Positions 21,072 to 25,877 of a stretch of DNA of 58,819 nucleotides are shown one piece after another. Below the pieces are notes generated by a model. It saw only the letters and a list, made by a program, of their open reading frames with translations. It searched no databases and was not told where the DNA came from. Positions within the stretch are counted from its first letter, which is position 1, and every line of letters starts with the position of its first letter. Position numbers and translations under genes: made by a program. The DNA is from Promethearchaeota archaeon (lineage in GTDB: Archaea > Asgardarchaeota > Lokiarchaeia > Sigyniarchaeales > SOKP01), in the NCBI GenBank assembly GCA_013375475.1, contig JABXKD010000012.1, forward strand, positions 1-58,819. The letters are read 5' to 3'.

Positions 21072-22655
21072 CTATTTTTTAAATTCTTTACCGTAACCTA
21101 TTAATCGATAGCGTCGATTGATGATTCTTGAAATTGCAAAAACAGAGTTTGCTGGAGCGCATATAGGGGGGTTTAAACTAATGATATAGGAATTTTTTAA
21201 TATTTTTACTACAATTCCCGCTGTTTTCTCAGTGCCAACGACTAGTAAAAGCTTCTCATTATGCTTAAGTAGTTGAACTTTCATTTGAACTTCTGATCCG
21301 AGAACTCTTTCTAGTAAATTAACCTTTAATTCAACTTCGGATATTACTTCTGGTAAAGTATCAGGTATACCTACTAGATGGCCTATTAAAGAATCTCCCC
21401 TTGTTAATGCAGGATCTAGTTTAGTGCCTAACCCAATTAGACCCCCTGGTTTAGCTTCAGCTAAGAGATTGCTTCCTTGGCTAATACTCACTATTTGAGT
21501 TTTTAATGAATTATATTTATTTTTAATCCGAAATCCCGGTTTAATCTCAATTTCTTCGCCAACTTTGATTTTCCCTTTTAAAACAGAACCTCCTATAACT
21601 CCGCCATTCAATTCATTAATTTGAGTACCAGGTCGATTGATATCGAACGATCGAGCAACTAAGAATTGAAAATCGTCCTCTTCATTAATACTTGGAGAAG
21701 GAATTATTTCTTCAAACGCTCGAACTACTAATCCAAGGTTTGCTCCAAAAACCGCAGACACAGGGATAATGGGTGCTTTATCTGCGACTGTGCCTTTTAC
21801 AAATGCTTTAATTTGACTGTAGTTTTCAAGCGCTTGCTCTCTTGAAACAGCGTCAATTTTATTCTGAATTATTATTATGTTGTTGATACCCGCGATATTT
21901 AACGCAGCTAAATGTTCTCTAGTTTGTGGTTGAGGACACACCTCATCAGCAGAAACTAATAAACACGCACCATTCATTAATGAAGCACCGCTCAGCATAG
22001 TAGCCATTAAGATTTCATGACCCGGAGCATCTACAAAGGAGATATTTCTTCTAAACTCTAAGGTATTTGAACAGCTTGGGCAATTAAATCTAGGTTTACC
22101 TTTTTTTCGAGCAATTTCTGCCATGTAATAGGTAAGATATTCATCACATTCTGGACAGTGTAATATAGTAGCATTTGAATATCCTAATTTAATAGAAATT
22201 CCTCTCTCTTGTTCTTCTGAATGCCTATCTGTCCAATCACCTGTAAGGGCTTTGACTAGCGTGGTCTTTATAGGAATTTGTCGAAAAGACTAATTCATTC
22301 CATGATCTACATGGCCCACTAGTCCAATATTACATTCAGCTTGCTTCTTTATTAATTCTTTCAAGTTTATGCTTTTTTGCGGCTTAGTTTTTGTTGTTAC
22401 TTCTGCTTTTTTTACCGGTTTCTTTTTTACTTCCGGTTTTGAAATTTCTAATTCGGAAAATTTCTCATTCAATAATGATTTTGCACTTTCTATAAATTTG
22501 GACGCTGTTGCTTTACCGACACCTTTGATATTAAGTTTCAAAAGATCCTCTGGTTTGGAAGAAGCTAAAATTTCAACAGATTTGATACCTGCCTCTTTTA
22601 TTTTTTTAGCTGTTTCAGAACCAATTCCTTTTACATCTTCTAATTGATAAACCAT
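21072..22655 (-). CDS. eif2g: Translation initiation factor aIF2 gamma, two exons (22655-22298 and 22267-21072), with N-terminal HhH extension; 517 aa after splicing
   Basis: NIGLVGHVDHG [30-nt insert] KTTLVKALTGDWTDRHSEEQERGISIKLGYS, Zn knuckle (CPEC...CPSC), DAPGHEILMATMLSG, PQPQTREHL, QNKID, RSFDINRPG, RYRLIGYG. The two ORF-track fragments share one frame and are separated only by the intron's TAG. Confidence 0.95.
22268..22297 (-). other. 30-nt archaeal-type (BHB) intron in aIF2-gamma mRNA
   Basis: RNA ...GAUC AUGG AA^U GAAUU A GUC UUUUC GAC A AAUUC CUAU AA^A GACC...: 4-bp helix AUGG/CUAU, two 3-nt bulges; cutting after bulge nt 2 restores CAU GGA AAG ACC (H-G-K-T). Confidence 0.9.
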
Positions 22656-22732
22656 AATAGATTTAGTTTTTTATTATAATTATTTCTTACTAATTATCTA
22701 AAATTTATTAATTCTCTTTAGATAAAAAGTAA

Positions 22733-22915
22733 CTACTCTTCTCCCCATTCATCATATAACCTTTTAAGTGTATTTCTTCCTACTCCATATTTCTTCGCTA
22801 ATTGAGAAAGGGAATATTTTTTGAGGAGTAATTCTAAATTTTCCTTATTTCCTATTTTAATTTTCAACAATTCTTTTTTATTTAGGTATTTTGTATTGAT
22901 ATTCCATTCATTCAT
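22733..22915 (-). CDS. Short HTH-containing ORF (possibly a gene remnant)
   Basis: SLSQLAKKYGVGRNTLKRL helix-turn-helix; frame stays open ~23 codons upstream of the ATG. Confidence 0.45.
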   Translation of the reverse strand: MNEWNINTKYLNKKELLKIKIGNKENLELLLKKYSLSQLAKKYGVGRNTLKRLYDEWGEE

Positions 22916-23033
22916 TAAATTAATGAGAGTTTTGTAGCTCGATTTAAGTTCTATAATTCGATTAAGAACTGGATCGCACAGAATTCAGAGTGGTTCTAAA
23001 AAAATATGTTTAAATGACTCTTAAGAATATATA

Positions 23034-23388: not shown

Positions 23389-25512
23389 ATGGGGACGCTC
23401 GGATTAAAAAAGTATGTGCTAATTATCCTAGTTATTATCATACTGAACCCATTTATTTTTACGAGCGTTAATGGTCAATCTGATTCAAGAAACTTGAAAA
23501 TTACCGCAATTCCCACAATTGGCTTGTCCCAATTACCAGAAATCAATTACACTGAGTTAGATGCCGCTTGGAATGATCAAAAAATCGAAATGTTAATTAT
23601 CGTGAATGACTCAAGCTTTACAGATGCGGTTACCCCTTTAATGGAATGGAAGAACCAGAAAGGCGTCAAAACAATCATTTTATCTAATTATTCGTCTTAC
23701 GAGGGGAGGGATAAAGAAGAAAAAATCCGAAATATGATAAAAGATTTTTACGAAAAGGAAAAAATTCAGTGGGTTCTTCTTGCTGGTGATACTGAAGAAA
23801 ATTTAATCCCTATAAGAGAAGTATATAATCCAGATGTTGTTGAAGTAGGAGGTGAATCGGAGTACTCTACTTGGGACGATGATTATAAACCAACTGATTT
23901 TTATTATGCTGATTTAACAGGTACGTGGGATGATAATAACAATAGCGATTGGGGAGAGTCTGCCGAATATAATGGAGAAAATGATGAAATTTCTTGGATT
24001 CCTGAGGTTTATGTAGGTCGTTTACCCGCTAGCAATCCTACTGAGCTTTCAGTAATGATCAATAAAACCTTAAAATATGAGACTGATCCGCATGTTGGAG
24101 ATTGGATGAATAAAATGCTCCTCGCAGGAGGTATATCTTCATATTCTCCTCCTGAGGACGAAGCACGCCTTACAGAGTATATTTGGGAGAACTATGTGAT
24201 TGACGAAGCTAAGTTTACACATCTTGCAAAAACCACATCTTCTTTTACACCAACCATTCCTTTATCTCCAAACTCGCTTGGTTCTCTTAATAGCACGAGT
24301 TTTCGTGATGAATTTGATTCAGGGTATTCAATGGTCATAATTGCTGGACACTCAGATCCCACCCAAATAACGGATGATAGCCACGAAGTATATTACAAGA
24401 ATACAGATGCTCTATCAAGCACCAATACAGAGATGCCTTCCTTATTTTACGCTGACGCATGCACAACATCCTCGTACGATAAAGGAGATAATAGTATTGG
24501 AGAAATATCTATTACCAGACCTGATTCCGGAGCAATTGGTTATATTGGCGGTCTACGCGTCAACTGGTATTATGATGACGATGAAAAATTAGAAAAACTT
24601 AACAGGGCTAATGCTAAACTATTTTGGAGAGAATTTTTTGTAGAAAAAAAATTCCAACAGGGAAGAGCTTTATACGATTCTAAGGTTACCTATATGAATA
24701 GCGATTATTTTGTGAGAGGAGAGGCTTCAATGATACAAGAGTGGCAACGTAAAAATGTGCTTACTTATAATTTATTAGGAGACCCCGAACTTGATGTGTA
24801 TACAAAAGTTCCTGCAGAAGTTCCAGATTATTTTAGCGGAAATATATATGAAGGTCAGTGCATTTCATTTCAAGTTGAAGATAATCTTGGGAGAACTGTT
24901 CCAAGAGCAAGAATTCATTTAAGAACTTTAAGTGGAAAGTACCGAACAATTTATGCTGATGTAGATGGTCTTGTAGAATTTAGATTACCATCTGAAGCAT
25001 ATGAAAATTACAGCGTAATAATAACAGGACACAATGTAGTCCCTTCCTACTTTAATTTTACTACACTACCCGATACTGACATGCCTGAGCTAAATACTGT
25101 TAATTACGACCCTATAAATCCTACAGCAACGGACAATATTTTATTTTCCTTTAATGCAAGTGATAAGCACTCGGGAGTTGAAAGCGTATTCTTATTGCTT
25201 TCGAAGAATAGTTTTTCAGACTTTTCATTAACTAGATTATCTAATCGTTTTAATGAGAATAAACAAGAGTTTAATGTTACTTTGAATAAATTAAAACCAG
25301 GTGAATATTCATATCTCATTATAACAAGAGATTATACAAACAAAACTTCCATTTTTTATGAAGACATTTTTAGTTTTTCAATACCTAAACTATTCACTGA
25401 TTTCGTGCTTGTAGTTGCTTCAATTATGATTATTGGTTTAGTTGGAATCTCTATAGTAGTCGTGATAATTGGAATGAAGAGGCATAAAAAGAACATTAAA
25501 AATTTGCGGTAA
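23389..25512 (+). CDS. Peptidase C25 (gingipain-like) family, membrane-anchored
   Basis: Signal peptide; WVLLAGD, TDFYYADL, VGRLP, AGHS and DACTT catalytic His/Cys, YNLLGDP; C-terminal TM. Confidence 0.88.
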   Translation: MGTLGLKKYVLIILVIIILNPFIFTSVNGQSDSRNLKITAIPTIGLSQLPEINYTELDAAWNDQKIEMLIIVNDSSFTDAVTPLMEWKNQKGVKTIILSNYSSYEGRDKEEKIRNMIKDFYEKEKIQWVLLAGDTEENLIPIREVYNPDVVEVGGESEYSTWDDDYKPTDFYYADLTGTWDDNNNSDWGESAEYNGENDEISWIPEVYVGRLPASNPTELSVMINKTLKYETDPHVGDWMNKMLLAGGISSYSPPEDEARLTEYIWENYVIDEAKFTHLAKTTSSFTPTIPLSPNSLGSLNSTSFRDEFDSGYSMVIIAGHSDPTQITDDSHEVYYKNTDALSSTNTEMPSLFYADACTTSSYDKGDNSIGEISITRPDSGAIGYIGGLRVNWYYDDDEKLEKLNRANAKLFWREFFVEKKFQQGRALYDSKVTYMNSDYFVRGEASMIQEWQRKNVLTYNLLGDPELDVYTKVPAEVPDYFSGNIYEGQCISFQVEDNLGRTVPRARIHLRTLSGKYRTIYADVDGLVEFRLPSEAYENYSVIITGHNVVPSYFNFTTLPDTDMPELNTVNYDPINPTATDNILFSFNASDKHSGVESVFLLLSKNSFSDFSLTRLSNRFNENKQEFNVTLNKLKPGEYSYLIITRDYTNKTSIFYEDIFSFSIPKLFTDFVLVVASIMIIGLVGISIVVVIIGMKRHKKNIKNLR

Positions 25513-25641
25513 GCCTAATGAATTGAATACATCTCCTTTTAAGTTTAACGATTTGTTATGAAAAAGTTTAATTACTAGTCTTTACTATTTCTATTACTTA
25601 CAACCCCATAAATAAAGCATTTTACTATAATATAGCCAAAC

Positions 25642-25877
25642 TTATGAAATGGTTGTTAGTGGTGTTTTTAACCACATAATCTCGTAGCGATTAGCTACAA
25701 CGCCGGAAGTTAAACTGTTTTGCGTTGCAAATAGTACTGTAGTTGAAAATCTATGGGAACTTGCAAACTGTAGCTTCGGCTACGGTCATGGTAATACAGG
25801 ATAGTACCCGGTACCATCCGAACCCGGAATCGTAAATGTGGTTAAAGAATATCACTGAAATCGTTATTTCTTCATAA
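25642..25877 (+). repeat. Long imperfect inverted repeat (processing stem) enclosing the permuted 5S rRNA
   Basis: TTATGAA/TTCATAA (25642-48/25871-77), ATGGTT/AATCGT, and TTAGTGGTGTTTTTAACCACAT (25656-77) pairing with ATGTGGTTAAAGAATATCACTGA (from 25836). Confidence 0.85.
25709..25829 (+). rRNA. rrf: 5S rRNA, circularly permuted gene (3' half 25709-25774, UUCG linker 25775-25778, 5' half 25779-25829); predicted 121-nt circular product
   Basis: 5' half GCTACGGTCATGG...TACCCGGTACCATCCGAACCCGGAA and 3' half GTTAAACTGTTTTGCGTT...AGTACTGTAG...CTATGGGAAC match the archaeal 5S pattern; helices I (ACTGTAGC/GCTACGGT), II (GTAATACAG/CTGTTTTGC), III, IV (CTGTAG/CTATGG), V (GCAA/TTGC), loop C CCGAAC and loop E AGUA/GAA can all be drawn. 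Confidence 0.9.

Follow-up and report, generated by a model that had tools for sequence, protein, structure and literature searches.

Thermoproteus carries a circularly permuted gene for the signal recognition particle (SRP) RNA, and Cyanidioschyzon merolae has permuted transfer RNA (tRNA) genes, whose circular product is reopened to an ordinary linear RNA. Among protein-coding transcripts, the cbf5 pre-mRNA reportedly harbors a bulge-helix-bulge (BHB) intron, in work ascribed to Watanabe in 2002. The two elements considered here belong beside these systems and lie in one window, a stretch of 58,819 nucleotides (nt) from a Loki-type (Promethearchaeota) Asgard genome. They are a 30-nt insert in the gene for the gamma subunit of archaeal initiation factor 2 (aIF2-gamma) and a permuted gene for 5S ribosomal RNA (rRNA). 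The source assembly (label G000) is a metagenome bin of 3.92 Mb in 288 contigs, with a completeness of 100 and a contamination of 6.41. Both elements are very probably genuine substrates of the tRNA splicing endonuclease EndA and the RNA ligase RtcB within a broader splicing program (probability of roughly 0.85).

The accessible passages of the published record describe several related cases. The cbf5 pre-mRNA of Crenarchaeota carries a BHB intron (PMC2738675), while the permuted tRNA genes of C. merolae are mentioned in PMC3326292, which also describes low-level circular 5S rRNA in Sulfolobus. Circular intermediates of 16S and 23S pre-rRNA are documented in a source that states, in the part available, that 5S rRNAs are not processed by circularization (PMC12918454). 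Circular or permuted 23S rRNA (PMC7758197) and permuted organellar 5S rRNAs (PMC4267664) have also been described. The tRNA genes of Asgard archaea are heavily interrupted, and their EndA belongs to the (alpha-beta)2 class (bioRxiv 10.64898/2026.10.13.758758; PMC5829648), with a Crenarchaea-specific loop (CSL), a type that cuts relaxed motifs (PMC5829648). In closed Heimdallarchaeum genomes, 5S genes “could not be predicted” (PMC8813620). Literature searches, mostly without subscription journals, returned no permuted archaeal 5S gene and no BHB introns in Asgard protein genes; the non-tRNA targets of EndA and RtcB in the literature searched are rRNA processing stems and one mRNA, cbf5.

The mini-intron of aIF2-gamma

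The aIF2-gamma gene occupies 21072-22655 on the minus strand, and its P-loop, GHVDHG|KTT, is split by the 30-nt insert at 22268-22297. The open reading frame (ORF) of exon 1 (22298..22655) begins at 22655, runs through ...QAECNIGLVGHVDHG, and then meets an in-frame TAG within the insert; KTTLVKALTG... resumes 30 nt on. Exon 1, recognized from the ORF list, the spliced frame, and a Pfam HHH_5 match on residues 5-59 (2.2e-12), ends with GHVDHG and the first A of the lysine codon. Exon 2 (21072..22267, KTTLVKALTG... to the stop codon) matches Pfam GTP_EFTU at profile positions 43-187 as well as eIF2_C and GTP_EFTU_D2, and is 76-97% identical to Loki aIF2-gamma loci (titled Promethearchaeota or Promethearchaeia). 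Computed cuts at GGAA^U (last exon base 22298) and AUAA^A (first exon-2 base 22267) yield a frame of 517 amino acids (aa) with GHVDHGKTT intact.

The insert is identified as a BHB mini-intron on the basis of its fold, its presence or absence in relatives, and covariation. Exon AUGG (22303-22300) pairs with intron CUAU (22273-22270) in a central helix of 4 bp, one of them G-U, and the two bulges, AAU and AAA, are 3 nt each. The intron forms an inner hairpin, GAAUU-A-GUC-UUUUC-GAC-A-AAUUC, and the minimum-energy fold includes the 4-bp central helix, the 3-nt 5′ bulge, and the inner helix. In the pre-mRNA, the two bulges would present the scissile bonds, such that cleavage after GGAA and AUAA followed by joining of the ends would release the 30 nt and restore the P-loop.

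Comparison with relatives drew on 80 related loci, 79 of which include upstream sequence. An insert is found at exactly the same site in 15 of the 79 Loki loci, while the other 64 read an uninterrupted GHVDHGKTT and agree exactly with the predicted splice junction. Counting that of the window, 12 of the 16 inserts have a length of 29 nt, which shifts the frame, and these are therefore not translatable insertions. Within the genus, 34 genomes have an aIF2-gamma match from query residue 1; the upstream frame is short in 12 (<430 aa, interrupted) and long in 22 (at least 517 aa).

The window, the 15 inserts, and four intron-less genes were aligned and compared with 500 shuffles, the number used for each alignment. 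Paired cells amount to 89.3%, as opposed to 74.6% in the shuffles, and the covariation score is reached by 0 of the 500. In the central helix, 95.3% of cells are paired. At its pair 40-71, 15 sequences have U-A and one has C-G; in the latter, a synonymous exon change, CAU>CAC, is matched by A>G in the intron. Changes on both sides are seen at seven of the eight pairs of the inner helix.

Exon 1 also encodes an N-terminal extension of ~120 aa (22299-22655, minus strand) with a helix-hairpin-helix domain and a Lys-rich linker. The ~480-600-aa open frames in most genomes of the order suggest that this extension is conserved there. Between aIF2-gamma and the 5S gene (22733-25512) lie three ORFs, encoding a 60-aa helix-turn-helix-like protein, a 75-aa zinc-ribbon-like protein, and a 707-aa secreted or membrane protein.

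A permuted gene for 5S rRNA

The second element, at 25703-25830 on the plus strand, holds the parts of a 5S rRNA in the order 3′ half, helix I closed by UUCG, and 5′ half. The whole window gives no match from Rfam at gathering thresholds and none from ARAGORN; in its genomic order, the 5S falls below the 38-bit gathering cut-off of RF00001. In E-value mode, the Rfam 5S_rRNA model matches 25674-25772 (3′ half, 17.3 bits) and 25778-25863 (5′ half, 18.6 bits). Helix I is closed as GTAGC-TTCG-GCTAC at 25770-25783, and CCGGAA occurs twice, at 25703-25708 and 25824-25829.

From 5′ to 3′, the precursor comprises a leader, the 5′ half of the BHB, the 5S unit, and the 3′ half of the BHB with the trailer. 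The leader (25668..25702), assigned by sequence reading and covarying inner pairs with the trailer, consists of the outer stem strand TTAACCACAT (25668-25677), a small hairpin, and the outer-helix strand ACG (25700-25702). The 5′ half of the BHB (25703..25709), read from the sequence and fully paired in its central helix across the alignment, contains the strand CCGG (25703-25706) and the bulge AAG, with a predicted cut at 25708|25709 (AA^G). The 3′ half and trailer (25824..25845; sequence reading, covariation) contain CCGG (25824-25827), the bulge AAU with a predicted cut at 25829|25830 (AA^U), the outer-helix strand CGU (25831-25833), and the outer stem strand ATGTGGTTAA (25836-25845). The two cuts release 121 nt (25709..25829), made up of the 5S 3′ half (25709-25774), the UUCG cap (25775-25778), and the 5S 5′ half (25779-25829); this unit is delineated by the Rfam half matches, rotation, covariation, and a back-joined contig. 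Its joined ends read ...CCCGGAAGUUAAAC..., the conserved helix III junction of 5S rRNA, and CCGG at 25824-25827 also pairs with 25810-25813 as helix III of the mature molecule. The locus thus has the hallmarks of a permuted gene: the 3′ half precedes the 5′ half, the natural ends are fused within the gene, and a BHB of leader and trailer recreates the mature junction.

In the proposed pathway, the leader would pair with the trailer and the 5′ copy of CCGGAA with the 3′ CCGG of helix III. Cleavage at both bulges would free the 121-nt piece, whose own ends would then be ligated to give the ...CCCGGAAGUUAAAC... junction. Since the UUCG loop already closes helix I, what results is most likely a 5S rRNA in the form of a covalently closed circle.

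The covariation analysis used 27 distinct sequences, all of one breakpoint type. Paired cells reach 90.3% vs 78.0% in the shuffles, none of the 500 shuffles reaches any of the measures, and double-sided changes are seen at 23 of 37 pairs. When the partners are shifted by 1-3 columns, the paired cells fall to 31-42%. In the BHB central helix, all cells (100%) are paired, the second pair being UA in 14, CG in 11, and UG in two of the 27 sequences. The three inner pairs between leader and trailer covary: columns 12-208 are GC in 11, AU in 10, and CG in 6; columns 13-207 are CG in 19, GC in 3, AU and GU in 1 each, and unpaired in 3; and columns 14-206 are GC in 19, CG in 6, and AU in 2. Covariation extends to 5S helices I, II, IV, and V. 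In helix III of the mature 5S, the shared 3′ strand is paired in 100% of cells, and since this strand pairs both in the BHB and in helix III, the 5′ flank mimics helix III. The two BHB structures of the preliminary description, the aIF2-gamma intron and the permuted rRNA, are thus borne out in sequence beyond shuffled controls.

Rotation in silico gives the same picture. Against a profile of 10 canonical 5S genes from the sister family, the rotated 5S yields a single end-to-end match in 27 of 27 cases (35.3 bits, E 2e-11 for the window), while the unrotated sequences in genomic order each yield two half matches, swapped. Other breakpoints also occur among relatives. L115, L127, and L134 open their 5′ part with GCG-CCGG/CUGG-AA^C-CAUCCGAACCCGG... 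and close their 3′ part with ACCCGG and two bulge letters followed by CGC, with 3′ cut letters UC^U-CGC in L115 and L134 and AC^A-CGC in L127. L132 has a third breakpoint. All four restore the same 5S consensus once each is cut at its own BHB.

Some permuted 5S genes of congeners carry additional sequence. In L098, L100-L103, and L109 (and L112 and L114), an extra insert of ~30 nt occupies loop C (alignment columns 167-197), framed by CCGA ... UCGG GAA and containing its own hairpin or, in the case of L112 and L114, direct repeats. This insert could represent either an expansion or a second BHB-like intron, and the cut register does not cleanly restore the consensus. A 30-nt hairpin insertion is present in the helix IV region (columns 54-83) of L105, L111, and L113.

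Blastn detects the permuted gene in 33 of 36 other genus genomes, one of which (G024) is recognized by short fragments only. A canonical 5S is detected by Rfam in 0 of 40 other genus genomes and, above the cut-off, in 0 of 21 genomes of the family, while in the sister family 12 of 14 genomes, closed genomes included, have one. The only canonical 5S in the source assembly lies on contig C263 (51.9 bits), which was rejected as a place for the archaeon's own gene as the contig is plastid-like. C263 (locus L003, C263:5454-8576) is 16.9 kb long with a GC content of 0.33, similar to that of the bin, and carries a bacterial-type large-subunit rRNA, the canonical 5S, tRNAs, and genes for psbA, secA, rpl21, a ccs1-like protein, and an rbcR-like regulator. 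By gene content, it is a plastid contaminant in the bin and the source of a misleading “normal” 5S. The sole 5S gene of the archaeon is the permuted one, in keeping with the suggestion of the preliminary description that apparently split core genes and missing RNA genes could be spliced.

A covariance model built from the permuted unit was applied to 150 other Asgard genomes, the same set being used for the canonical model, and matches 57 of them. By family, the matches amount to 24/25 in f1, 5/5 in f13, 6/7 in f25, 5/7 in f27, 4/6 in f24, 3/5 in f22, and 2/4 in f20, with single matches in f9, f10, f11, f18, f23, f28, f30, and f32 and none in f12 (0/26), f17 (0/19), f8 (0/4), and f2 (0/2). The canonical 5S scores above the cut-off in 49 of the 150: 25/26 in f12, 17/19 in f17, 3/5 in f21, 1/2 in f2, one each in f15, f30, and f31, and 0/25 in f1. 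Both models score in one genome only, the distant Asgard G171, which was rejected as a holder of both forms, the Rfam match being borderline and on a 5′ half. This genome has four permuted copies with BHB flanks at the ends of contigs C77, C90, C106, and C132 (L392-L395). Fourteen model matches from 13 other families were read, and all are permuted with long leader and trailer helices, as in GCGCCACGG-CGUG-AA^A ... CACG-GA^U-CCGUGGCGU. In many Asgard families, permuted 5S genes take the place of canonical ones.

The same data bear on the suspicion that pseudogenes or assembly errors account for the interrupted genes and that the swapped 5S arose through decay or rearrangement of a copy. A bin of 288 contigs with 6.41% contamination, together with a 5S that Rfam does not recognize, invites such a reading. 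However, the same-site interruptions recur in independent assemblies with different, compensating sequences, the flanking coding sequence is 76-97% conserved, the interrupted genes are essential and single-copy, and a covarying permuted 5S persists in 33 of 36 congeners that have no other archaeal 5S. An origin by decay or misassembly is accordingly scarcely credible.

RNA evidence for the 5S was sought among the assembled contigs of public runs. Run X3 contains a 151-nt contig that runs, on the sense strand, through 25703..25823 and continues with 25703..25729. It has the predicted back-join, whose exact point is ambiguous within the repeated CCGGAA, and 151 nt equals the 121-nt circle plus an overlap of 30 letters. 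The contig may be the circle as it would be printed by an assembler working with 31-letter words. In G171, from another family, the multi-copy 5S genes all retain their flanks in DNA.

The circle could in principle be an intermediate that is reopened in the helix I cap to give a linear 5S, or the ends could never be ligated, leaving a permuted linear RNA. Reopening has a precedent, as circular 16S and 23S intermediates that are later reopened are presented as the textbook archaeal pathway in the available part of PMC12918454. In the permuted 5S, however, each of the 27 sequences has a fully paired helix capped by four loop letters, usually UUCG or UACG, and no conserved processing signal is seen there. 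The covariation of leader and trailer, like the duplication of the junction letters, speaks for selection of ligation, and the 151-nt contig is consistent with a closed circle. A reopened or unligated product is thus unlikely, though less so than decay or misassembly of the locus, and a mature circular 5S is favored.

Further interrupted genes and the probable processing enzymes

The preliminary description had proposed that this lineage may use BHB splicing well beyond tRNAs. A motif-free census by reciprocal tblastn between the source genome and a congener, G017, supports this with four further interrupted protein genes in the former and three in the latter. The inserts in the source genome are 29-31 nt long. 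In proteasome alpha (TQFGG|IRPFG), 30 nt with a stop codon are bounded by GAGG AA^A ... CCUA AA^U, and the two halves of the gene are consecutive on the Pfam profile (positions 1-98 and 101-184). In EF-2 (MTDSD|EEEQARGITI), 30 nt with a UAA are bounded by UCAG AU^U ... CUGA AA^G; the congener gene is uninterrupted, and the spliced junction equals its sequence. EF-1alpha (...VIIGH|IDHGKST) has 31 nt with GGAC AU^U ... GUUC AA^A, and a DUF6125 gene (LAIDG|TWFQ) has 29 nt. In the congener, EF-1alpha (GHIDHG^K) is interrupted by 33 nt with AUGG AA^U ... CCAU AU^A at the same P-loop position as aIF2-gamma, an acyl-CoA-dehydrogenase-like gene contains a 33-nt insert, and a low-molecular-weight (LMW) phosphatase contains 21 nt inside CSGN|TARS. 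The sites vary among congeners. In wider samples, 3 of 42 archaeal EF-1alpha loci carry interruptions, at two sites, as do 3 of 80 proteasome alpha loci, at one shared site with differing hairpins.

A 4-bp helix with 3-nt bulges is present at aIF2-gamma, at EF-2, where the helix UCAG/CUGA is perfect, and at EF-1alpha (GGAC/GUUC), and cuts in the bulges restore a continuous conserved product at aIF2-gamma, proteasome alpha, and EF-2. All four cuts predicted in the window follow AA, as the preliminary description noted, but relatives show AU^A, UA^A, AG^A, AC^U, UC^U, and GA^U, and AA before the cut is a tendency rather than a rule. A 5′ exon end in ...GGAA, resembling the CCGGAA of the 5S, is seen at five of nine distinct sites (aIF2-gamma, congener EF-1alpha, proteasome alpha, DUF6125, and LMW phosphatase). 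This could reflect a target preference for intron gain or just Gly-Lys codon usage.

Programmed translational bypass, in which the ribosome hops over an unspliced insert, offers another way to read such genes. It is known from phage T4 gene 60 and the “byp” elements of yeast mitochondria, in which matching take-off and landing codons flank the gap. The inserts described here are short (21-33 nt) and hairpin-forming, and several have a stop codon soon after the would-be take-off point, as a bypass by means of hairpin and stop would have it. Matching codons, however, are missing at aIF2-gamma, proteasome alpha, and EF-2: the aIF2-gamma insert comes after GGA, yet no GGA precedes the AAG at its end, and the same holds for EF-2. 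The pairing between exon and intron letters covaries although bypass has no need of it, and the same 4-bp helix with 3-nt bulges is found at the 5S locus, which is non-coding. Bypass is therefore very unlikely, and excision at the BHB is preferred.

Several other screens accompanied the census. At the DNA level, a blastn comparison of the congener with the genome returned 746 pieces with no adjacent pair among them, and a screen for conservation starting upstream of the first start codon raised 343 flags and was too noisy. A stricter start-codon screen, with 19 and 17 flags, led to EF-2 and also flagged odd start codons and probable selenocysteine genes. Two conserved frames contain single in-frame stops, an HdrA-like gene (C30:5882-7138, plus strand) and a SelD-like gene (minus-strand ORF of C155, 43273-44244 on the reverse complement); these stops are probably selenocysteine codons, not introns. 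The assembly has 44 tRNA genes, 4 of them plastid, and ARAGORN predicts introns in 22. The RNase P RNA is ordinary (137.5 bits). SRP RNA was considered as a second permuted RNA, and the only match is colinear and sub-threshold: at C166:40735-40970 (minus strand, L362), it scores 62.9 bits vs a threshold of 96.5 over model positions 67-307, with the 5′ Alu-domain part unaligned. This RNA may be divergent, interrupted, or permuted.

The type of EndA and the presence of RtcB, both singled out for checking in the preliminary description, were examined in the genome. Two EndA homologues (PF01974 and PF02778) of 200 and 202 aa are encoded. Residues 17-200 of the first align with residues 4-186 of the Aeropyrum catalytic subunit 3p1z_B (1.8e-35) with no gap in the CSL, a K aligned to K44, and the catalytic Y, H, and K aligned. 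In the second, the His position is not conserved, as judged by eye. [quoted passage not shown] RtcB is encoded at C211:64795-66102 (minus strand) by a 510-aa open frame with a full-length PF01139 match (560.7 bits, profile positions 1-426). It is plausible that, as first suggested, one endonuclease gates both ribosome assembly and initiation.

The proximity of the two loci had been regarded as possibly coincidental. The permuted 5S and aIF2-gamma lie 1-4.8 kb apart on one contig in 25 congeners (positions compared by hand), and this neighborhood is a conserved synteny. The aIF2-gamma intron is present in only about one-third of the genus, and therefore no coupling of the intron to the synteny is shown.

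Whether a translation-related program connects the two loci is a separate matter. They may be real but unrelated, with sporadic selfish mini-introns being noticed in conserved genes. The low and patchy occupancy (aIF2-gamma in 12 of 34 congeners by open-frame length, EF-1alpha in 3 of 42 loci, and proteasome alpha in 3 of 80), the inserts in genes outside translation (DUF6125, acyl-CoA dehydrogenase-like, and LMW phosphatase), and the restriction of the census to conserved genes are in line with this account. Opposed to it are the interruption of three paralogous translational GTPases in one genome, the location of two sites in the same P-loop motif, and the ...GGAA exon end at five of nine distinct sites, as at the 5S junction. 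The account of unrelated loci stands at nearly even odds.

Weight of the evidence and relation to known systems

Several observations weigh against treating both loci as EndA and RtcB substrates within a broader program. At aIF2-gamma, the outer exon-exon helix has 2 bp only and is missing from the minimum-energy fold, so that the motif falls short of the strict hBHBh′ form; on this ground, it appears to be a BHB of the relaxed kind, which would require a broad-specificity EndA. The outer helix is weak or absent at the introns in general, and proteasome alpha and DUF6125 have three of four central pairs only, being relaxed rather than canonical. Compared with shuffles, none of the five intron regions shows a better fold (z = 0.30, -1.71, -0.86, -0.17, and 0.70, the aIF2-gamma region, at 0.30, being no more stable than its shuffles). 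A genome-wide BHB scan, envisaged in the preliminary description, succeeded in one respect only: combined with ORF merging, it recovered aIF2-gamma, but among 279 candidates that are mostly inter-gene gaps, and a relaxed scan anchored on GGA[AT] returned 1114. Pure motif scans cannot tell introns from gaps between neighboring genes and are unusable as a census. The motif-free census sees conserved genes only and used 1,151,881 bases of the congener, ~30% of that one genome, and the bias of the inserts toward translation genes may be one of ascertainment. No spliced aIF2-gamma mRNA of this organism is found among the public-run contigs, and no joint is listed. Records 7 and 8 of run X1 (RNA) read from 22343 to 22300 and then directly into KTTLVKSLTG codons, the intron-less form, but these contigs are 90-95% alike and indistinguishable from an intron-less relative. 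The X3 library, whose source is given as metatranscriptomic, is flagged “RNA? (probably DNA)”, which makes the RNA origin of the 5S contig uncertain; the short side of that contig, 27 letters, is under the 31-letter rule, and it is absent from the joints table.

Direct RNA proof is still thin; the mechanism is known and the substrates are new. The strongest new points are that 5S rRNA in many Asgard families has an obligatory origin by cutting and ligation and that mini-introns recur in translational GTPases. A wider proposal, tentative and a little short of an even chance, is that in about half of the sampled Asgard families 5S rRNA is made only by EndA and RtcB from a permuted gene and is circular in the mature ribosome, while the same enzymes serve mobile mini-introns of 21-33 nt that recurrently enter ...GGAA-like sites of highly conserved protein genes, the P-loops of aIF2-gamma and EF-1alpha among them. 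One prediction is a circular 5S within the ribosome. If it holds, protein genes of the closest archaeal relatives of eukaryotes routinely need splicing, and the 5S genes that “could not be predicted” in closed Asgard genomes are explained. The permuted gene offers a concrete answer to the “missing 5S rRNA” of Asgard annotation, and EndA/RtcB chemistry appears obligatory here for a core ribosomal RNA and several essential genes of translation and proteostasis. In these genomes, gene callers will report split or truncated forms of aIF2-gamma, EF-1alpha, EF-2, and proteasome alpha; the same genomes provide a natural system for the study of intron gain and loss in protein genes in the lineage nearest eukaryotes.

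Among described systems, crenarchaeal cbf5 is the counterpart of the mini-introns: in both, a short intron in a protein gene is removed, or here would be removed, by the tRNA splicing endonuclease and is gained or lost among relatives, as far as the available passages on cbf5 go. The introns differ from that of cbf5 in their Asgard hosts, in affecting several genes per genome, in the position of their sites in the most conserved motifs, in their length of 21-33 nt, and in sites that differ between congeners. The interrupted tRNA genes of Asgard archaea share the same broad-specificity enzyme type, and about half of the tRNA genes here have predicted introns; those studies concern tRNA genes, and their accessible passages make no mention of protein-coding or 5S substrates.

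For the 5S gene, the organellar permuted 5S rRNAs are similar in their changed part order and in being missed by standard models; in contrast to the present case, they are described, in the part of the source available, without involvement of BHB, EndA, or RtcB. The SRP RNA of Thermoproteus and the tRNAs of Cyanidioschyzon are closer in architecture, with the 3′ half upstream, a BHB of leader and trailer, and the order restored through a circle. The permuted 5S differs from these genes in that the RNA is 5S rRNA and in its wide distribution across Asgard families with at least three breakpoints. With the circular 16S and 23S pre-rRNAs, it has in common a BHB in processing stems, cleavage attributed to EndA, and circularization of an rRNA. 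However, the genes for those pre-rRNAs and for the circular 5S of Sulfolobus are colinear, whereas here the permuted gene makes ligation obligatory for any 5S.

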